From the NCBI GenBank assembly GCA_943348815.1, contig CALQYT010000001.1:12488-76487 (forward strand): DNA of 64,000 nt, in the 5' to 3' direction. Below the pieces are notes generated by a model. It saw nothing but the letters and a program-made list of their open reading frames with translations, was not told the origin of the DNA and ran no database searches. Positions within the stretch are counted from its first letter, which is position 1. Each line of letters opens with the position of its first letter. A program made the position numbers and the translations under genes. Source of the DNA: Candidatus Nomurabacteria bacterium (GTDB lineage: Bacteria; Patescibacteriota; Minisyncoccia; Phycocordibacterales; SBAW01). This document shows positions 1,521 through 21,822 of this stretch, in pieces.

Positions 1521-1566
1521 TCCCTTCGGTAGGAATCGAACCTGCATCAACGGCTTAGAAGTCCGC
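1521..1566 (-). pseudogene. tRNA 3'-half fragment (anticodon arm + T-arm + 3' acceptor strand) with Arg-TCT-like anticodon loop
   Basis: Minus-strand read GCGGA-CTTCTAA-GCCGT-TGAT-GCAGG-TTCGATT-CCTAC-CGAAGGG-A has a T-loop GTTCGATTC and the same anticodon loop as the intact tRNA downstream. No complementary 5' acceptor strand or D-arm can be found upstream. Confidence 0.35.
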
Positions 1567-1577
1567 CACTACCCAAG

Positions 1578-1621
1578 CCGACGCTTCGGTCGGTTCCCCG
1601 ACCCGCTTTGCGGCGTCGGGG
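1578..1621. repeat. two adjacent GC-rich palindromic hairpin repeats (CCGAC-GCTTCG-GTCGG and CCCCGAC-CCGCTTTGCGGC-GTCGGGG)
   Basis: Perfect 5-bp and 7-bp stems read directly from the sequence. The same CCCCGAC...GTCGGGG motif recurs at 1998..2021, 10446..10482 and 13835..13854. Confidence 0.6.
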
Positions 1622-1638
1622 TTGAACTATTCTCTCCA

Positions 1639-1710
1639 TGCCCCCGCGAGGAGTCGAACCTCGAATAGCGGCTTAGAAGTCCGCAGTTATATCCGTTTAA
1701 CTACAGGGGC
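1639..1710 (-). tRNA. tRNA-Arg (anticodon TCT)
   Basis: 72-nt cloverleaf on the minus strand. Acceptor stem GCCCCTG pairs with CGGGGGC; D-arm GTTA/AACGGATA/TAAC; anticodon stem GCGGA/GCCGC with loop CTTCTAA; T-arm CGAGG-TTCGACT-CCTCG; discriminator A. CCA is not encoded. Confidence 0.85.
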
Positions 1711-1971
1711 TTATGGTTCAAGTCTAATGTATCCTTCTTTTATCATTTTCTCAATGTAGTCTTTCCGTTTAAGTCTCTTTATTTTACGTTCAACCGAACG
1801 TGCTTCTTTAAGAGTTTTATACTCTTGACTTAATAAAAGTTTCTTCACACCAAAATTTGCCGTGGTGTAGGTGTGTCCGAGCTCATGTTGTCTAAGACGT
1901 TTCTTAAGATCATGAGTACTGCCTATGTAATATCTCCCTACATTGGTTTCCAAAATGTATACCCAAGCCAT
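1711..1971 (-). CDS. GIY-YIG domain nuclease family protein (YhbQ/UPF0213-like, 86 aa)
   Basis: MAWVYILETNVGRYYIGSTHDLKKRLRQH is a GIY-YIG signature. Start is at the internal ATG at 1971..1969. The TAA stop at 1713..1711 directly abuts the tRNA +1 nucleotide at 1710. Confidence 0.8.
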   Translation of the reverse strand: MAWVYILETNVGRYYIGSTHDLKKRLRQHELGHTYTTANFGVKKLLLSQEYKTLKEARSVERKIKRLKRKDYIEKMIKEGYIRLEP

Positions 1972-1997
1972 AAATACTGAGAGGAGTTGGGTGCAAG

Positions 1998-2021
1998 CCC
2001 CGACGCACAAAGTGGTCGGGG
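1998..2021. repeat. palindromic hairpin repeat CCCCGAC-GCACAAAGTG-GTCGGGG
   Basis: 7-bp perfect stem. Lies immediately upstream of the GIY-YIG start codon. Confidence 0.55.
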
Positions 2022-2036
2022 AGCCGACTCGCCCAA

Positions 2037-2651
2037 CTAGAATAGTTGGGGCAGAACGTCGGCTCGCACCATAGCATATATGATAGCAAGCACCAGCACG
2101 AAGATGCTCACCCACAAGAAATAGCGCTTGATAAACACCAGCGCCTCGGCGCCAAAGCGGTGCGTAAGGTAGACAAAGAGCGCCATGCGGATGCCGCGGC
2201 CAAGCACATAGCCCAAAAAGTATGGCACAAAGTGTACGCCCAAAAATCCGCCGGCATAAATAAATACTTTGTCCGGTATTGGCGTAAACGACGCAACCGC
2301 CATCGCCAAAAATACGTGGCCCATAATATAGTGCCGCGCCATGCGGAAAGCTCCCTGCAGGTTATAAAACGCCAAAATCGGCTCGCCGAATTGTTTAAAC
2401 AAAAATGCGGCGACAAAGTAGCCGGTTGCTGCACCCAATGCGGAGCAAGTGATGGCGACGGCGAGGTAAGAGCGGGCGCGCTCTTTGTGCGCGAGCGTAA
2501 GGGCTACCAAAAATATCTCCGGCGCCACGGGGAAAAAGAGTGCATCGGTAAACGAAATGAGCCCGAGCCACCAGAGTGCATGGGGCCGTTGTGCCTGTAG
2601 CACAAACCACGCCCACCATCGCTCTTGCCAGAGCTTGAAGTAATTCTCCAT
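2037..2651 (-). CDS. YqaA/DedA-family (VTT domain) membrane protein
   Basis: Polytopic membrane protein. The motif ...VFLAMAVASFTPIPDKVFIYAGG... is typical of the YqaA/DedA family. Confidence 0.6.
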   Translation of the reverse strand: MENYFKLWQERWWAWFVLQAQRPHALWWLGLISFTDALFFPVAPEIFLVALTLAHKERARSYLAVAITCSALGAATGYFVAAFLFKQFGEPILAFYNLQGAFRMARHYIMGHVFLAMAVASFTPIPDKVFIYAGGFLGVHFVPYFLGYVLGRGIRMALFVYLTHRFGAEALVFIKRYFLWVSIFVLVLAIIYAMVRADVLPQLF

Positions 2652-4152: not shown

Positions 4153-4240
4153 TGGTGTAGCATAGCAAACATTGGAGGGGTGGCAGACCACCGCCTACGG
4201 CGGGGCCTCGCCAAAGGCGATGGGTGGTCTACAAAACAAG

Positions 4241-4522
4241 ATGTACTTTGCATACATTCTACAGAGCAAAACCAGTGGCCGATATTATATAGGATCTACT
4301 CAAGATCTAGAGAACCGGCTGAAACAACACAATCGTGGTTCAAATAAATCCACACGCCCCTACCGCCCCTGGCAGCTCGTATACTCTGAATCTTTCCCGG
4401 ACAAAAAATCAGCATGGTTGCGCGAACAACAGATAAAAAGATATAAAGGCGGAGAAGCGTTCCACCGCTTGCTTCGGGATCCCGTCGAAGGCGGTGATAA
4501 AAAGCTTATAATAAACGCGTAA
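4241..4522 (+). CDS. GIY-YIG domain nuclease family protein (94 aa)
   Basis: MYFAYILQSKTSGRYYIGSTQDLENRLKQHN is a GIY-YIG signature. The TAA stop at 4520..4522 directly abuts tRNA-Ser +1 at 4523. Confidence 0.8.
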   Translation: MYFAYILQSKTSGRYYIGSTQDLENRLKQHNRGSNKSTRPYRPWQLVYSESFPDKKSAWLREQQIKRYKGGEAFHRLLRDPVEGGDKKLIINA

Positions 4523-4610
4523 GGAGGGATGGCAGAGTGGTCTATCGCACCGCACTTGAAATGCGGCGTACCGCAAGGTACCGGAGGTTCGAATCCTCCT
4601 CCCTCCGCCA
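4523..4610 (+). tRNA. tRNA-Ser (anticodon TGA), CCA encoded
   Basis: Acceptor stem GGAGGGA pairs with TCCCTCC. Anticodon stem CCGCA/TGCGG with loop CTTGAAA. Long variable arm CGTACCGCAAGGTAC is class II. T-arm CGGAG-GTTCGAATC-CTCCT; discriminator G followed by CCA. Confidence 0.9.
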
Positions 4611-6104
4611 AAATTCGGAATTCAAATTTCCGCCAAAAATATGGTCGGCGCGAAGCGCCGTCTGTTCTGCATTCCCCCCACAAAATCCTGATTCTGCAAG
4701 GATTCGCCACGCTCCGCGTGGCTCAAAAAAGACGGTTCGATCCTTAATTTGAAAGTTCGAACCGACTTTTTTGTACAAATGAATTTTTTCTTCATTTGTA
4801 CACTCGTTTGCCAATTCCACATTGAATTTCAAAAACTTTTCCGTAAGTTCGAACCGATTATTCGCTTTTTGCTCAAAAGCCGATAATTTCTCTTTGAGAA
4901 GCTGTTTTTGATTAACCAACGCACTTTTAGCGTCCCGATATTCCTCTAGTGAAAGTGCGTTCTCTAGGTAAGCGTTCATCAGCTTCTCAATCTTGGAATC
5001 CAAAAGAGAAATGTCTGCTTTTGTTTTGTCTGCAAAAAGCGTAGACGATTGGGCTTCCACCAATTTGTCTTTTTCGTTTTCCGCCAACATCCATTTAGCC
5101 CAATCGTCTGGCAAAGAAACTTTTTTGATTTCTTTTTGAATTTCGGAAGTGATGATTTCCTCACGAGTATATTTTTGTGAACAAGGATTTTTCCGCTTGG
5201 TACATCGTAAATAGTTATGACCTTTTTGTGTTTCGGTGGTAATAAAACATCCACATTCTCCACAACGGAAAAATCCTCTATACAAAAATGGTTTCAGTCC
5301 TTTCGGGTGAGGTTTAGATTTCCTCATCATCACTTCTTGAACAGAATCAAAAAGTTTCTTTGAAATAATCGGTTCGTGTTTGCCTTCGTGGATTTCACCG
5401 TTATACAACATTAAACCTGTGTATATCGGATTTTTCAAAAGTTTTTGATAATTCGACACCGCAAGTTCCTTTCCGCTTTTTCGTTTCAATCCAAGTTCGT
5501 TAAATTTGTCACGGAGCTGTCTCAAAGTGAAAGACCCAGACGAATATGCCTCAAATGTTTTCTTGATTAAAGGTGCGATACTTTCATCAACGACAATTTT
5601 CCCGCCCTCGTTTATATATCCGAGTGGAGACATTTGAGGCCATATACCGTCTTTCACTTTGTTTCTTTTTCCACGCTTGATATTCTCCGACAAATTGTCC
5701 ACATAATACTTGGATTGCGAAAAAGCGATTGAGAGCATGAATTTGCCTTGCGGTGTCGGATCACACCAGAAAGTTGGAAATTTTAGCTCGGCAATTTTTC
5801 CCGTATCGAGCAAATATATTATCTTTCCACCATCAACACTATTTCTCGCTAACCTATCGGGATGCCACGCTAAAATTCCGCTTGCCTCATTTTGCTCGAT
5901 ACGAAGAAGCATTTCATTAAATACTGGCCGACCCGGAACTTTAGCAGTTTGTTTTTCAACGAAGATATCTACAACTTCAATATTCTCTTTGAGGGCGAGA
6001 GATTTTAATTCGGCCAGTTGGTCTGAAATGCTTCTAACTTGCCGATCTTCAGTATCGGTAGATTTTCTTGTATATATGAAAAACTTTCTGGTGTGATTAT
6101 TCAT
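4542..6104 (-). CDS. large serine recombinase (resolvase/integrase family) with zinc-ribbon domain
   Basis: N-terminal FFIYTRKSTDTEDRQ...SISDQ is a serine-recombinase catalytic motif. Followed by a recombinase domain, a CGECGC...C zinc ribbon and a coiled-coil. The reading frame has no stop before running through IR-A into the tRNA, so the true C-terminus is uncertain. Confidence 0.85.
   Translation of the reverse strand: MNNHTRKFFIYTRKSTDTEDRQVRSISDQLAELKSLALKENIEVVDIFVEKQTAKVPGRPVFNEMLLRIEQNEASGILAWHPDRLARNSVDGGKIIYLLDTGKIAELKFPTFWCDPTPQGKFMLSIAFSQSKYYVDNLSENIKRGKRNKVKDGIWPQMSPLGYINEGGKIVVDESIAPLIKKTFEAYSSGSFTLRQLRDKFNELGLKRKSGKELAVSNYQKLLKNPIYTGLMLYNGEIHEGKHEPIISKKLFDSVQEVMMRKSKPHPKGLKPFLYRGFFRCGECGCFITTETQKGHNYLRCTKRKNPCSQKYTREEIITSEIQKEIKKVSLPDDWAKWMLAENEKDKLVEAQSSTLFADKTKADISLLDSKIEKLMNAYLENALSLEEYRDAKSALVNQKQLLKEKLSAFEQKANNRFELTEKFLKFNVELANECTNEEKIHLYKKVGSNFQIKDRTVFFEPRGAWRILAESGFCGGNAEQTALRADHIFGGNLNSEFWRREEDSNLRYLAVRRISSAVR
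4605..4724. repeat. inverted repeat A (120 bp, perfect partner at 6126..6245)
   Basis: The reverse complement of 4605..4724 is identical to 6126..6245 by hand alignment. Its first 6 nt (CCGCCA) are the 3' end of tRNA-Ser. Confidence 0.85.
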
Positions 6105-6125
6105 AGAATTGTATTGGCAAACGAG

Positions 6126-6245
6126 GAGCCACGCGGAGCGTGGCGAATCCTTGCAGAATCAGGATTTTGTGGGGGGAATGCAGAACAGACGGCGCTTCGC
6201 GCCGACCATATTTTTGGCGGAAATTTGAATTCCGAATTTTGGCGG
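6126..6245. repeat. inverted repeat B (partner of A)
   Basis: Identical to the reverse complement of 4605..4724. Confidence 0.85.
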
Positions 6246-17288: not shown

Positions 17289-19661
17289 CTAAATTTTTAG
17301 AGGGTTCATCTCGCCCCAGTTTTTACCCACCTTACCCTCAACCAATATCGGCACCCCACGGCGTTTTTCTTTGGGCACCACACTCTCCATTATCTCTTTT
17401 ATTTTTGGTGCGTACTCCTGCACCTTATTTTTAGGGATTTCAAACACCAATTCGTCGTGCACTTGTAGCAACAAAATATCGGGCAGCTGTTTATCTATCT
17501 CTATCATCGCCAACTTAATGATGTCGGCCGAGGTGCCTTGGAGCGGCGCGTTGATGGCCATGCGCTCGGCCGCCGCCTGCACGTAGGGTATGGCCGATTT
17601 GATCCCCTCAAAGTAGCGCCGACGCCCAAAAAAGGTGGCGGTGTAGCCCTTGCGCGCCGCCTCGCCTTTTATTTCGTCGAGATACTCGGCCAACCGCGGG
17701 AAGGTCGCAAAGTATTGGTTATAAAATTCCTGTGCCTCTTTGCGGTTGGTGTTGAGCGACTGCTGCAATGCCATGACCCCCATCCCGTAGAGGATCCCGA
17801 AGTTGATAACCTTCGCTCGGCGGCGCTGCTCGTAGGCATCGAGCGTGCTGTTTTTGCCCTGGCCGGGCAGGCCAAACACGCGCGCGGCAACTTCGGCATG
17901 TACGTCGCGGCCATTTTTAAATATTTCAATCAGTGCTTCGTCGCCCGAAAGTATTGCGGCTAGCCGCAACTCCACCTGGCTGTAGTCGAACGACACCAAC
18001 TCCATCCCCTTGCTCGCCACAAACGCGTGACGGATCCGCCGGCCCAAATCACTTTTGACCGGGATGTTTTGAAGGTTGGGGTCGAGCGACGCCATGCGGC
18101 CCGTAGCCGCACCTATTTGTACATAGCGCGTGTGCACGCGGCTCTTTTTATCTAACAGTGCAGGCAGTGCGTCGATGTACGTACCAAGCAGCTTGCTTAA
18201 CTCGCGATACGCCAAAATGTCGTTGATGATGGGGTGAACATCGGCGAGCTTTTGCAATTCGGACTCGCGCGTCGAGCGCTGACCACCAGCGGTCTTCTTT
18301 TTGGTCGCGAGCCCCAGTTTGTCAAAAAGCACTTCGCCTAATTGTTTAGGGCTGCTGACATTAAACTCGCCGCCCGCCTGCGCATAAATGCGTTTGGCTA
18401 TTTTCTCCGACTCTTTGGTATATTCTTTCGAAAGTTCTTTCAAAAATTCTTTATCCACCTCGACGCCCCGCACTTCCATGCGCCGCAATACGGGCGCCAG
18501 GGCCAGCTCGATGTCCTCGTATACAAACTGGAGATCTTTTTCTTTTATCTCTGCTTCCAAATTTTTAAGAGCGTCTTCAAAATCTTCCGACTTGCCCATA
18601 CGCAGCACATCTTCTGTTGTCGGCTCGGCAATAGCGCTGTCGAGCACCGACACCGCGATTTGCGCGCGATTAAACAACTCCGGCGCAACACTCTTGGCAA
18701 AAAGTCCGCTCGTGGTTTCAGCTACAGGAGATTCTTGCTCCGCCTCGATTCCTAATATCTTTTTTACCCGTGGGACGAGCGCTCTAAACTCAAACTCCGC
18801 CAACATATCGAGTGCGGCTTTGGGGTGTGCGCCTTCGCGCCAGGTTTGGTTAGGAATTTCAAATACGATAGGTACGTCGCGGCGAATAGTCGCAAGCAAC
18901 TTACTAAATTCAGCTTCCTCTTTATGATCGGCAACGAGCTGCACAAAACGTTTTTGTACGGCGCTCGCTTCGGCCACCCCTTCCACCCCGTCTTTTTTAA
19001 TCGCCACAAAAATGCCTTTTAGAGAGCCGTATTTTTGTAGGAGCTTAAGCGCGCTCCCCTCGCCCACGCCGGGTACCCCTTTAATATTGTCGCTCGCGTC
19101 GCCCGCAATCCCTTTAAGGTCGGGCACGACCTTTGGCCCAAAGCCGTAGCGCGCGTTGACCGCCGCTTCGTCAAACATCACCGTATCGTTGAGTCCTTTG
19201 CCGAGGGTAAAAACCGTAACCTTCTCACCATCAATTAATTGCAGTGCGTCTTTGTCGCCCGAGGCAATTATTATTTCAAGATCTTTCTTTTTTTTAACCT
19301 GCTCAACAATCGTGCCGATGACATCGTCGGCCTCAAACCCCTTGTGCGAGTAAACCGGCACGCCAAAGGCCTCGAGTACGGCGGGTGCACGTTTAAGCTG
19401 TACCGACAGCGCCTCCTCGGTTTTCATACGAGTAGCCTTGTACTCTTTGTACGCAACATCTCTAAAAGTATCGCCGGGGAGGTCGATTGCGGCAGCAATA
19501 TAATCGGGCCGCAGGTCGTTGATAATTTTAATAAGCATCGAAAGCAGCCCGTAGAGACCGCCTGTAGGCACCCCCTTACTCGAACTAAAATCCGGCAGCG
19601 CGTGGTACGCCCGGTGCAATATGGCGTGTGTGTCGAGTATGACGAGGCGCTTTTGGCTCAT
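17289..19661 (-). CDS. polA: DNA polymerase I
   Basis: N-terminal 5'-3' exonuclease domain (LVILDTHAILHRAYHAL..., FEADDVIGT) and C-terminal polymerase domain (motifs A, B, C; ...LQVHDELVFE...). Confidence 0.9.
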   Translation of the reverse strand: MSQKRLVILDTHAILHRAYHALPDFSSSKGVPTGGLYGLLSMLIKIINDLRPDYIAAAIDLPGDTFRDVAYKEYKATRMKTEEALSVQLKRAPAVLEAFGVPVYSHKGFEADDVIGTIVEQVKKKKDLEIIIASGDKDALQLIDGEKVTVFTLGKGLNDTVMFDEAAVNARYGFGPKVVPDLKGIAGDASDNIKGVPGVGEGSALKLLQKYGSLKGIFVAIKKDGVEGVAEASAVQKRFVQLVADHKEEAEFSKLLATIRRDVPIVFEIPNQTWREGAHPKAALDMLAEFEFRALVPRVKKILGIEAEQESPVAETTSGLFAKSVAPELFNRAQIAVSVLDSAIAEPTTEDVLRMGKSEDFEDALKNLEAEIKEKDLQFVYEDIELALAPVLRRMEVRGVEVDKEFLKELSKEYTKESEKIAKRIYAQAGGEFNVSSPKQLGEVLFDKLGLATKKKTAGGQRSTRESELQKLADVHPIINDILAYRELSKLLGTYIDALPALLDKKSRVHTRYVQIGAATGRMASLDPNLQNIPVKSDLGRRIRHAFVASKGMELVSFDYSQVELRLAAILSGDEALIEIFKNGRDVHAEVAARVFGLPGQGKNSTLDAYEQRRRAKVINFGILYGMGVMALQQSLNTNRKEAQEFYNQYFATFPRLAEYLDEIKGEAARKGYTATFFGRRRYFEGIKSAIPYVQAAAERMAINAPLQGTSADIIKLAMIEIDKQLPDILLLQVHDELVFEIPKNKVQEYAPKIKEIMESVVPKEKRRGVPILVEGKVGKNWGEMNPLKI

Positions 19662-20139: not shown

Positions 20140-21822
20140 ATGGTTGTCTTTGCGGATGCTGAAGAACAGAAGCGCTTAGACTTTTTACGTCGGCGCGAAG
20201 AGGAAGAGCTCGCGCAAGTACTCTCGAGCAAGTATGGCGTGCAGTACGTCGACCTGACGCTCGTCGCTATCAACGTCGATGCGCTGCGGGTTATTACCGA
20301 AGCCGACGCTAAGGGGGCCGAGGCTGCGGCATTTGGTCGAGTAGGCAAAAAGCTTTCGGTCGCCGTGCGTGCGCCCGAGAATCCCAAAGTGAAGGCGCTC
20401 GCCAACAAACTCACTGAACTCGGCTACGAAGTAACGCTCTTTATGTGCTCGCAGGAGTCGCTCAAGCGCGCCTACCAGCGTTACGCCGACCTCTCGTATG
20501 CTACCGAAACTAAGGCGGGTGTGTTTGAGCTTTCGCCGGAGGAGCTCGAGCAGTTGCTGGCAAAGGTAAATTCCCTCCCCGACATTGGCAAACTTATTTC
20601 TGAAGCGATCGAACTTAAAAAAGCCTACCGTATTACGCGCATACTCGAAGTGATTTTGGCCGGCGGGTTGGCGACCGGCGCGTCTGACATACACTTTGAG
20701 CCCGAGGAAAAAGCGGTGCGGCTGCGCTATAGGCTCGACGGTGTGTTGGTTGACGTGCTTACCTTCGATCACGAGACGTACCACCTCATGCTCAGCCGTT
20801 TAAAACTACTGTCGGGATTGAAATTAAATATCGAAGGCGAGGCGCAGGACGGGCGCTTTTCTATCAAAATCAAAGGCGACGAAATTGAGCTGCGCACCTC
20901 GATACTCCCGGGCAATTATTCTGAAACGTTGGTGCTCCGTATTCTTAATCCCAAAGCAATTGGCGTGCAGCTGGAGGAGCTTGGGTTTGAAAAAAAACTA
21001 AAAGAAAGGATCGAAAAAGAAATCAGCAAGCCAAACGGCATGATACTGACGACCGGCCCCACCGGTTCGGGCAAAACAACAACCCTCTACGCCTTTTTAC
21101 GCAAAGTAAATTCATCCCAGAGCAAAATAATTACGATCGAAGACCCTATCGAGTATCACCTGCAGGGTATTGTACAAACGCAGGTCGACAAAAAAACCTA
21201 CACCTTTGCCAACGGCCTGCGTAGCGCCCTGCGCCAAGACCCCGACATCATCATGGTCGGCGAGATACGCGACGCCGAGGTGGCCGAAACAGCCATCAAC
21301 GCCGCGCTCACCGGACACTTGGTCTTCTCTACCCTGCACACCAACGATGCACCGGGGGCCTTCCCCCGCCTTATCGACCTCGGCGTCGACGATAAAGTGC
21401 TCTCCTCGGCTATCAACGCGGTGTTGGCACAGCGCCTCGTGCGCAAACTGTGTGACAAATGTAAAATCGCGCGCGACGCAACTGCCGATGAGCAAAAAGT
21501 AATCGACAAATATTTGGCGACGGTGGTCGACAAAGCATTAGTGCCCCCAGAATCAAAAAAAGTTTGGGAAGCAGGTCAAAAACCCGACTGCGAACTCTGC
21601 CATGGGCGCGGCTACAAAGGCCGCATTGCTATTTTTGAAGCGGTGTTTATGGACTCGGCTATCGAAGCTATTTTGCGCAACAAACCCTCGGGCCGCGAGA
21701 TTTATGCCGCCGCCCGCCCGCAAGGCCTCCCGAGTATGCAAGAAGACGGCATTATCAAAGTCCTGCGCGGCATCACGAGTATGGAAGAACTCCGCCGCGT
21801 CGTAGATTTGGATACTAACTAA
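20140..21822 (+). CDS. pilB: type IV pilus / type II secretion assembly ATPase (PilB/GspE family)
   Basis: Walker A GPTGSGKTTT, Asp box, Walker B DPDIIMVGEIRD, His box, and the tetracysteine motif CDKC...CELCHGRGYKGR. Start at ATG 20140, after the tsaE start. Confidence 0.85.
   Translation: MVVFADAEEQKRLDFLRRREEEELAQVLSSKYGVQYVDLTLVAINVDALRVITEADAKGAEAAAFGRVGKKLSVAVRAPENPKVKALANKLTELGYEVTLFMCSQESLKRAYQRYADLSYATETKAGVFELSPEELEQLLAKVNSLPDIGKLISEAIELKKAYRITRILEVILAGGLATGASDIHFEPEEKAVRLRYRLDGVLVDVLTFDHETYHLMLSRLKLLSGLKLNIEGEAQDGRFSIKIKGDEIELRTSILPGNYSETLVLRILNPKAIGVQLEELGFEKKLKERIEKEISKPNGMILTTGPTGSGKTTTLYAFLRKVNSSQSKIITIEDPIEYHLQGIVQTQVDKKTYTFANGLRSALRQDPDIIMVGEIRDAEVAETAINAALTGHLVFSTLHTNDAPGAFPRLIDLGVDDKVLSSAINAVLAQRLVRKLCDKCKIARDATADEQKVIDKYLATVVDKALVPPESKKVWEAGQKPDCELCHGRGYKGRIAIFEAVFMDSAIEAILRNKPSGREIYAAARPQGLPSMQEDGIIKVLRGITSMEELRRVVDLDTN

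Follow-up and report, generated by a model that had tools for sequence, protein, structure and literature searches.

A dispersed double-hairpin module linked to GIY-YIG nuclease genes and tRNA genes in a Candidatus Nomurabacteria contig

Several short GC-rich palindromes with the stem CCCCGAC/GTCGGGG lie close to tRNA genes and to a gene for a GIY-YIG nuclease in a 64,000-nucleotide (nt) stretch of a Candidatus Nomurabacteria contig (CALQYT010000001.1 of assembly GCA_943348815.1, positions 12,488 to 76,487; the whole stretch is hereafter called the window). This locus raises the question of what the palindromes are and how they are related to the tRNA and nuclease genes around them. A sequence-only reading of the window had described them as a REP-like (repetitive extragenic palindrome-like) dispersed repeat and had considered a nuclease target or a mobile palindrome. 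The analysis described here indicates that the palindromes are very probably copies of a mobile module of 39-67 nt, composed of two directly abutting hairpins with 7-base-pair (bp) stems and widespread in Paceibacteria/Parcubacteria of the candidate phyla radiation. The same high confidence applies to its mode of insertion, which is clean, without target duplication and in either orientation, and which occurs in tRNA D-loops (after nt 15, or after nt 10 in a subtype), in protein genes, either in frame or at their 3' ends, and in spacers. Taken as a whole, the system is probably a mobile double-hairpin element tied to GIY-YIG cassettes that replace tRNA genes.

All the hairpins listed in the sequence-only reading are present in the window sequence where it had placed them. 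A search of the 64-kb window with the pattern CCCCGAC.{4,14}GTCGGGG returned three sites (1596-1621, 1998-2021 and 13835-13854), compared with a mean of 0.00 in 100 dinucleotide-preserving shuffles of the window. The shorter core CCGAC-N3-16-GTCGG was observed eight times against 0.75 expected, a number reached in none of the 100 shuffles. Among the 5-mer palindrome stems of the window, CCGAC shows the strongest enrichment (8 observed vs. 1.6 by k-mer expectation), and CCCCGAC is the only 7-bp stem with three copies. The loop CGAAGC is, as had been noticed, common to two copies (1593 to 1578 on the minus strand and 13837-13852), and the loop of the copy at 10465-10480 is CGGAGC. The hairpins abut in pairs (1576-1595 and 1596-1621, 1998-2021 and 2022-2064, 10444-10462 and 10463-10482). 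The real unit is this pair of abutting hairpins, a point that the sequence-only reading had missed. A typical module consists of CCCCGAC-variable loop-GTCGGGG followed directly by AGCCGAC-CGRAGC-GTCGGCT, with two 7-bp stems and a length of 39-67 nt.

A covariance model (R1) was built from 47 modules of other contigs, with no window sequences in it, and was searched against the entire window with filters off. The search recovered exactly three full modules and one half module in the 64 kb (Table 1), giving a density of 3.5 copies per 64 kb, and no other match in the window was better than E=0.3. The CCGAC hairpins at 21242 and 31694 were not reported by R1 at E<=10; they are therefore regarded as chance occurrences and not as members of the family. 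On the minus strand, copy 1 reads CCCCGAC-GCCGCAAAGCGG-GTCGGGG (1621-1596) and then AACCGAC-CGAAGC-GTCGGCT (1595-1576). Copy 2 reads CCCCGAC-GCACAAAGTG-GTCGGGG (1998-2021) and then AGCCGAC-29-nt loop-GTCGGCT (2022-2064); the 29-nt loop contains a nested hairpin at 2032-2050, and the region has a fold z-score of -5.55. Copy 3, with AGCCGAC-GTTTT-GTCGGCT followed by CTCCGAC-CGGAGC-GTCGGAG, stops 2 nt 5' of an intact tRNA-Arg(GCG) (10485-10557), and the same AGCCGAC/CTCCGAC subtype also borders GIY-YIG/tRNA-Arg(GCG) cassettes in L139 (sequences used for comparison are designated by L and a number).

Table 1. Window features discussed in the text (positions count from the first letter of the window)
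Feature	Position	Strand	Remarks
Resident tRNA-Arg(TCT), remnant	1521..1575	-	Rfam tRNA model 20.5 bits, under the gathering score
Module copy 1	1576..1621	-	R1 54.3 bits, E=6e-10; within the D-loop of the broken resident tRNA-Arg(TCT)
TAGTTCAA, nt 8-15 piece of a tRNA-Arg D-arm	1622..1629	-	Directly 5' of module copy 1
Intact cassette tRNA-Arg(TCT)	1639..1710	-	ARAGORN; Rfam 57.7 bits
GIY-YIG #1, 86 aa, UPF0213/YhbQ type	1711..1971	-	Pfam GIY-YIG E=2e-13
Module copy 2	1998..2064	+	R1 40.9 bits, E=4e-7; inverted relative to copy 1
VTT/DedA gene	2037-2651	-	Module copy 2 inserted at its 3' end
Second cassette	4174..4610	+	GIY-YIG #2 and tRNA-Ser(TGA); other hairpin pair
Module copy 3	10444..10482	+	R1 43.1 bits, E=1.5e-7
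Half module, single hairpin CCCCGAC-CGAAGC-GTCGGGG	13835..13854	+	R1 24 bits, first hairpin only; ruvA linker

The module is conserved well beyond the window. A 19-mer across hairpin 2 (CCGACCGRAGCGTCGGCTT), used as a probe, matches at least 120 metagenome contigs. The counts given below for the metagenome sample refer to the matches listed, whose legible contig names are mostly Hainich samples and JGI metagenome ids. Hairpin 1 lies directly 5' of the 19-mer in 90 of 113 unique contexts, the others being mostly GC-rich chance matches; one of the 90 modules was set aside, and 89 were used in the later analyses. Comparison of the 79 distinct module versions showed that the hairpin 1 stem is ~95% conserved, with a loop of 5-27 nt that often prolongs the stem. 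When hairpins were chosen by their inner 5-bp core, the outer two pairs were complementary in 353 of 368 cells (158 ± 12 in the shuffled control), with eight complementary dinucleotide types. This excess over the shuffles indicates that pairing is maintained at the outer positions. In the stems, an inner core of 5 bp (CCGAC/GTCGG) is conserved in sequence and the two outer base pairs co-vary; of the loops, one is hypervariable. A phage origin of the module was considered and rejected, as the 19-mer matches only three viral contigs, none of which has the first hairpin.

The modules are concentrated at tRNA genes. A tRNA D-loop context was found for 52 of the 89 modules. Intact tRNAs lie within 100 nt of 51 modules (6.8% expected, P~5e-36), and GIY-YIG open reading frames (ORFs) lie within 120 nt of 17 (1.7% expected, P~3e-13), bearing out the tie to tRNA and GIY-YIG genes that had been proposed from the window. 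In 19 of 22 cases the upstream tRNA copy follows the intact tRNA through exactly its first 15 nt, and the module begins there. Past the module the copy resumes at (T)TGG with no bases duplicated or lost, and both orientations are seen, so that the insertions in the D-loop are clean. Excision of the module in silico yields a tRNA recognized by ARAGORN in only 2 of the 89 cases. With so few tRNAs recovered, the modules are not introns, and their hosts are truncated duplicates. The D-loop host is a truncated tRNA duplicate beside an intact tRNA, which had likewise been overlooked. A tRNA intron of the group I or archaeal kind was rejected on the same excision result and because no 5' acceptor strand is left in the window remnant. 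The group I introns of Patescibacteria tRNAs are anticodon-loop introns and are unrelated to the D-loop modules.

A subtype of the module sits after nt 10 of the tRNA, with stems such as GGCCGAC, TCCCGAC or GCCCGAC and, in L144, CCCCGAC (L005, L127, L142 and L144). Two modules of unlike subtypes occupy a single tRNA fragment, at nt 10 and nt 15, in L127 (1209-1297) and L021 (9743-9830), and these doubly occupied fragments indicate that the insertion position is subtype-specific. Hairpins were also observed inside the loops of other hairpins (L031 5532-5561, L069 286-332, L112 1172-1217, L006 9935-9978 and 2032-2050 in the window), some of them being a second CCCCGAC/CTCCGAC hairpin within hairpin 1; this suggests that new copies go into hairpin loops. 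About a third of modules lie outside tRNAs. One of these, in L057, is located in an ORF whose FPADYIAEGMDQTRGWFY motif led us to interpret it as an isoleucyl-tRNA synthetase. Nine modules lie within ORFs of at least 330 aa, and in eight of them the module length is divisible by 3, where chance would give one third.

The arrangement around the first cassette of the window shows how module, nuclease gene and tRNA are combined. Read along the minus strand, the VTT/DedA gene (2651-2037) is followed by module copy 2, a 26-nt spacer, GIY-YIG #1 (1971-1711), tRNA-Arg(TCT) (1710-1639), a 9-nt spacer, TAGTTCAA, module copy 1 and TGGGTAGTGGCGGACTTCTAAGCCGTTGATGCAGGTTCGATTCCTACCGAAGGGA. The palindrome at 1998-2021 is positioned 26 nt 5' of the nuclease start codon (1971), and the pair at 1578-1621 lies 17 nt 3' of the tRNA (1639-1710, minus strand). 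The first base of this intact tRNA is the base right after the stop codon of GIY-YIG #1. The TGGGTAGTGGCGGACTTCTAAGCCGTTGATGCAGGTTCGATTCCTACCGAAGGGA stretch is a tRNA-Arg(TCT) body without the 5' acceptor strand. It retains the remainder of the D-loop, the TCT anticodon arm, the T arm with one C-A mismatch, the 3' acceptor strand and the discriminator. The junction in which a module is preceded by TAGTTCAA and followed by (C)TTGGATAG recurs in L011, L006, L049 and L141.

Comparison with relatives bears on which of the two tRNA copies is the older resident. Over 60 nt, the remnant shares 83% identity with the native L003 tRNA, and its 3' body differs from the native tRNA of L145 (GCA_034680565.1) at 3 of ~50 nt, with a CAA trailer common to both. 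The intact window tRNA reaches only 75% identity in comparison with the native L003 tRNA. As the remnant is close to the L145 tRNA and the intact copy is diverged, the remnant is read as the resident and the intact tRNA as the incoming copy. Judged by these alignments, the stretch 1521-1575 is the broken resident tRNA-Arg(TCT), which the sequence-only reading had not recognized, and the cassette has very probably displaced this resident, broken by a module in its D-loop. Since the resident survives only as the remnant, the sole tRNA-Arg(TCT) of the window is that of the cassette. The intact window tRNA opens with GCCCCTGTAGTTAAA, and all of these 15 nt are matched by the 5' fragment that bears a module in L141. 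In L144, a module interrupts the GCCCCTGTAGTTAAA allele behind nt 10, so that the flanks match nt 1-10 and nt 11-19 only. The tRNA-Arg(TCT) alleles swap roles between lineages (L141 2930-3340, L144 1660-2060, window 1639-1710). In the window, the cassette carries the GCCCCTGTAGTTAAA allele intact, and the remnant belongs to the allele beginning with GCCC(T/C)CGTAGCTCAATGG. In L141 and L144, the GCCC(T/C)CGTAGCTCAATGG allele is intact, and it is the GCCCCTGTAGTTAAA allele that is present as a 5' fragment broken by a module.

Module copy 2 provides the last nine codons and the stop codon of the VTT/DedA gene. The VTT C-terminus is ...MVHWHLFGL in homologues (66-75% identity) and the module-encoded ...MVRADVLPQLF in the window, and the DNA alignment with L145 places the insertion after ATGGTGC. 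Copy 2 is therefore a separate insertion in the 3' end of this gene. About 2-5 kb beyond the window start, at 4588-7338 of L001, there is a 916-aa ORF with a DUF8128 match and a weak DUF87 (HerA/VirB4-like ATPase) match, together with several unannotated ORFs; another integrated element may lie beside the tRNA-Arg locus.

L145 is syntenic with the window over the genes for Mur ligase, RuvA to RuvX, tRNA_bind and VTT, with protein identities of ~70-75%. It is empty at four sites that are occupied in the window (the module after VTT together with the cassette, the module 5' of tRNA-Arg(GCG) and the ruvA hairpin), and it bears modules at two other places (2109-2148 and 18716-18759). As each site is occupied in one genome only, all six are polymorphic between the two genomes. 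Sites are thus gained and lost, and the empty sites of L145 substantiate the suggestion of a dispersed, mobile palindrome. In both L145 and L003, VTT is directly followed by an intact tRNA-Arg(TCT) and the GIY-YIG gene is absent. The module 5' of tRNA-Arg(GCG) is also absent in both; the L003 spacer at this position is too diverged for fine mapping, and the empty site is shown by L145.

The ruvA hairpin lies in frame in the variable linker and encodes (H)PDRSVG, read in the frame that hairpin 2 also uses in the synthetase-like ORF of L057. The identical 20-mer recurs as one of the hairpins of a D-loop module in L093. The linker of the window RuvA is 2-5 aa longer than in 14 homologues (68-77% identity), exactly at the hairpin. 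The window shares a D/E-R pair with L003 and L011 that it does not share with the closer homologues (68-77%).

A further structured region was observed beside copy 3. The ~145-nt spacer between tRNA-Arg(GCG) and tRNA-Arg(CCG) (window 10557-10701, L145 4316-4470) holds three to four hairpins and is 85% identical between the window and L145, although the proteins are only ~70% identical. Its last hairpin has compensatory changes (AACTTTTTGC..GCAAAAAGTT vs. GCGTTTGCGC..GCGCAAACG). The corresponding spacer in L003 is 24 nt long without the hairpins, and the window spacer has no Rfam match. This spacer is a candidate small structured RNA.

The nuclease gene was analysed together with its homologues. 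The domain of GIY-YIG #1 covers residues 1-70, so that the 86-aa protein is a catalytic domain only, and no second Pfam domain (NUMOD, zinc finger or helix-turn-helix-type DNA binding) was found in it. Tyr5, Tyr15, Gly17, Arg25, His29 and Glu61 are invariant across 33 homologues, and by these residues the enzyme looks catalytically intact. The nearest solved structures are the UPF0213 proteins 1zg2 (BH0048, E=3.8e-5) and 1ywl (EF2693, E=8e-3). Assemblies of Kaiserbacteria, Adlerbacteria and Paceibacterota contain homologues with 58-71% identity. Because the metagenome sample was seeded with the 19-mer, an unbiased set was formed from the window and nine loci picked by protein identity alone (L005, L006, L007, L011, L137, L139, L141, L142 and L144). 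In all ten loci, the GIY-YIG start codon is preceded at a distance of 8-60 nt by a two-hairpin module with the CCGAC core, again as the proposed tie to GIY-YIG genes would have it. This upstream module lies within a tRNA 5' fragment in nine loci, the exception being the window (1998-2064, in the VTT 3' end). In all nine loci readable downstream, an intact tRNA on the same strand, for Arg, Val, Thr or Phe, lies 0-120 nt past the GIY-YIG stop codon. The linkage of the module with the nuclease gene and the replacement tRNA is constant.

The full order of module, GIY-YIG gene, tRNA, module and 5'-truncated tRNA body is the usual one at loci with both flanks readable, and is seen in the window, L049, L085, L090, L115 and L139. 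L133 has the first four in order, and its blastn table shows no truncated tRNA past the second module; from the printed flank, the sequence beyond this module may be read as a truncated tRNA. The two flanking modules share the hypervariable loop sequence at six of eight loci and are therefore sister copies, which are direct repeats at most loci. A GIY-YIG protein of an unlike kind was observed in L145 (6813-7457, 214 aa, PF26468, GIY_YIG_3), just upstream of RuvX and ~940 nt from tRNA-Ser(TGA).

A second cassette of like architecture but with another hairpin pair is present in the window. It begins with a tRNA-Ser 5' fragment, GGAGGGGTGGCAGA (4174-4187), which a 36-nt two-hairpin insert, CCACCGCCTACGGCGGGGCCTCGCCAAAGGCGATGG (4188-4223), splits after nt 14 from GTGGTCTAC (4224-4232); the fragment was compared with the intact tRNA-Ser by eye. 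GIY-YIG #2 (4241-4522) follows and is 36% identical to GIY-YIG #1 by tblastn. The tRNA-Ser(TGA) at 4523-4610 is intact and opens on the base after the stop codon of GIY-YIG #2. This cassette suggests that several pairings of nuclease and hairpins exist.

Next to it, perfect 120-nt inverted repeats (4605-4724 and 6126-6245) were observed around a large serine recombinase ORF (4542-6104, minus strand, 520 aa, with Resolvase, Recombinase and Zn_ribbon domains). The left arm starts within the 3' end of tRNA-Ser(TGA), and the region has a low GC content of 0.38-0.43. For the region 4542-6245, an invertible segment, an integrated element and an assembly artefact are all conceivable. L137 has a similar recombinase close to its GIY-YIG cassette.

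Other identities for the palindromes were weighed against these results. A chance resemblance between unrelated GC-rich structures, such as terminators or accidental palindromes with a coincident stem, has practically no probability left. Several of the hairpins are intergenic and intergenic hairpins are frequent in this genome, but the counts are reached in none of the 100 shuffles, the hairpins have no T-tail, the module recurs in at least 120 unrelated contigs and R1 singles out the same copies. Intrinsic terminators in particular were rejected, as no T-run follows the hairpins and a consensus scan of 1300-2300 calls no CCGAC hairpin. An origin of hairpin 2 (CCGACCGAAG) from the similar tRNA 3' end (CCTACCGAAG) was dropped because the same hairpin adjoins many unrelated tRNAs. 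The module could instead be a REP/PATE-like element moved as single-stranded hairpin DNA by a RAYT of the Y1/HUH type, or a TnpA of the IS200/IS605 type, encoded elsewhere, with an indirect link to GIY-YIG because both selfish DNAs gather at tRNA D-arm hairpins and at dispensable tRNA duplicates. The clean insertions without target duplication and with edges exactly at the hairpin feet would suit such a mover, as would the nested hairpins in L031, L069, L112, L006 and the window (2032-2050), which suggest loops as targets, and the many modules with no GIY-YIG gene nearby. However, Y1_Tnp, RAYT and other transposase families are absent from the 16 Pfam-annotated gene tables around modules and cassettes, and none of the 79 distinct module versions has a GTAG head, their ends being CCCCGAC.../...GTCGGCT. 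On these grounds and on the low copy density in the window, membership in the REP family, as the sequence-only reading had it, was not upheld. An indirect link would also hardly explain why all ten GIY-YIG loci are occupied at 8-60 nt from the start codon, and the second GIY-YIG type (36% identity) has another hairpin pair, as if hairpins and nuclease co-vary. A Y1/HUH-type mover is thus considered unlikely.

A role in RNA is equally unlikely in our estimate. The module would then act as a leader, processing or stability element on a transcript from the tRNA promoter, in which the GIY-YIG mRNA is fused to the tRNA and RNase P cuts at the stop codon. The constant position 8-60 nt 5' of the GIY-YIG start codon, the abutment of tRNA and stop codon, the co-variation of the outer stem pairs and the strong fold (z=-5.55) would be consistent with this role. 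However, both module orientations occur at the same tRNA position, and modules are also found 3' of tRNAs, in frame within ORFs and in spacers. In addition, the inner 5 bp are kept as sequence, beyond mere pairing, the non-Watson-Crick cells are not mainly G-U, and Rfam 15 gave only tRNA matches in 1400-2200 (E<=10) and 10400-10800 (E<=5), with no match to the module at E<=10. It is still less probable that the module is an attC-like folded site through which small circular GIY-YIG/tRNA cassettes integrate by a site-specific recombinase in the fashion of an integron. Sister modules, mostly direct repeats, do border the cassettes, the palindromes follow a YYYYRAC/GTYRRRR pattern, and large serine recombinase genes lie close by in the window (4542-6104) and in L137. 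Against this stand the absence of an integron integrase from the gene tables around modules and cassettes, the lack of a recombinase at most loci in these tables, and the solo modules in ORFs and inverted flanking pairs, which do not fit integration of this kind. Moreover, attC sites typically carry extrahelical bases, whereas the module stems are perfect 7-bp helices, and an integron attC site proper was rejected.

The preferred explanation therefore remains a mobile double-hairpin element tied to tRNA-replacing GIY-YIG cassettes. Such a system joins two known kinds of selfish DNA, the hairpin mini-elements and the tRNA-linked GIY-YIG homing genes. As to how it works, a tentative account, possible but open to considerable doubt, is that the nuclease cuts hairpins or the D-arm, the cassette is copied in by repair and its tRNA secures retention. 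The GIY-YIG nuclease would act on extruded hairpins or on the hairpin-forming DNA of the tRNA D-arm, and the break would be repaired by copying the cassette from a donor, similar to the intron-less homing by T4 SegB. The module would split the D-arm of the tRNA copy that is discarded, and the tRNA borne by the cassette would make the element hard to lose. SegB and the classification of YhbQ and YazA alongside Slx1 serve as precedents for this account. The more specific proposal, that the double hairpin is the DNA substrate that gives a domain-only GIY-YIG nuclease both sequence and structure specificity, in a new mobile system with an essential tRNA as addiction device, is speculative and, as it stands, somewhat unlikely.

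Several observations weigh against this picture or limit it. About 80% of the modules in the metagenome sample have no GIY-YIG gene within 120 nt, so the modules must be able to persist or spread even where no nuclease gene is present in cis. The cassette tRNA keeps an unbroken D-arm, and simple target-site immunity therefore cannot explain self-protection. The flanking modules are inverted in the window and in L005, and no single integration mechanism covers both arrangements. GIY-YIG genes lie at syntenic positions (RuvX, tRNA_bind ... tRNA-Arg) in several genera, an arrangement as compatible with long residence or domestication as with recent homing. At the ruvA site, a clean 20-nt insertion was not upheld, since the net gain is only +2 to +5 aa and the D/E-R pair is also present in L003 and L011. 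Finally, the 19-mer seed fixes hairpin 2 in the sample, and the orientation counts (43 same, 9 opposite) were discarded because its final TT biases them.

The closest known system is T4 SegB, a free-standing GIY-YIG homing endonuclease in a phage tRNA gene cluster that recognizes a conserved tRNA stem-loop motif (the T-arm), spreads neighbouring tRNA genes and has a C-terminal DNA-binding region with a NUMOD3 motif (PMC2330249). As with SegB, the GIY-YIG gene lies among tRNA genes and varies in presence between relatives, a universally conserved tRNA motif qualifies many tRNA genes, and neighbouring tRNAs are inherited together with the nuclease gene. In contrast to SegB, the cassette protein is an 86-aa catalytic domain, the junction falls in the D-loop and the element resides in a cellular chromosome; the double hairpins and truncated tRNA duplicates that mark the cassette junctions are also not described for SegB. 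The cassette nuclease lacks the DNA-binding domain that defines homing enzymes of the Seg and I-TevI types. GIY-YIG #1 has the same domain family and size as UPF0213/YhbQ/YazA proteins (PDB 1zg2 and 1ywl), and a review places YhbQ and YazA in one group with Slx1, a structure-selective nuclease (PMC7017083). We found no description in the open-access literature of the module sequences, of the tRNA/GIY-YIG arrangement in Parcubacteria/Patescibacteria or of truncated tRNAs associated with GIY-YIG genes, and no report there that ties UPF0213/YhbQ to tRNA genes or hairpin repeats.

On the side of the hairpins, passages of two papers describe mitochondrial double-hairpin and hairpin-forming elements and yeast GC clusters as short and mobile, with conserved stems and variable loops, located in spacers and genes and retained in transcripts (PMC2800124, PMC4478555). 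The module resembles what these passages describe in being short and mobile, in having one or two hairpins and in residing in spacers and genes. It differs in that the mitochondrial elements are organellar and unrelated in sequence, and the passages mention neither D-loop specificity nor a nuclease/tRNA cassette partner. Double-hairpin elements of Allomyces are reportedly linked to a mobile endonuclease ORF. Like the Rickettsia palindromic elements (RPE), the module also inserts in frame in genes. RPE are about 100-150 bp long and restricted to Rickettsia, and to our knowledge they have no nuclease partner; unlike them, the module is 39-67 nt long with a defined two-hairpin form. REP sequences and bacterial interspersed mosaic elements (BIME) share with it the short GC-rich palindromes that are dispersed and often paired. 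REP/BIME are imperfect palindromes with a conserved GT(A/G)G head at the 5' end; they are extragenic, number tens to hundreds per genome and flank a RAYT gene. In comparison with REP/BIME and their RAYT, the module has a low density in the window, copies within genes and a GIY-YIG nuclease as the partner gene.

If the proposed mechanism is correct, a nuclease of the UPF0213 type would mobilize a miniature hairpin element, break single-copy tRNA genes and deliver the replacement. Loss of the cassette would then be lethal, so that an essential tRNA would serve as an addiction device, and a first function would be given to the large UPF0213/YhbQ family. The 40-nt double hairpin together with the tRNA D-arm, which reads GTAGCTCAATGGATAGAGC in an intact tRNA-Arg, would be a candidate substrate for the stand-alone GIY-YIG proteins of this family. 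The in-frame modules in essential proteins, among them RuvA, the DedA/VTT protein and the isoleucyl-tRNA-synthetase-like ORF, represent a source of protein length variation in these lineages, comparable to the palindromic elements of Rickettsia, and annotation pipelines will miss or miscall the module-tagged tRNA fragments left behind. For the genome-reduced bacteria of the candidate phyla, the finding indicates that small selfish cassettes turn over single-copy tRNA genes, with foreign alleles replacing the resident ones.

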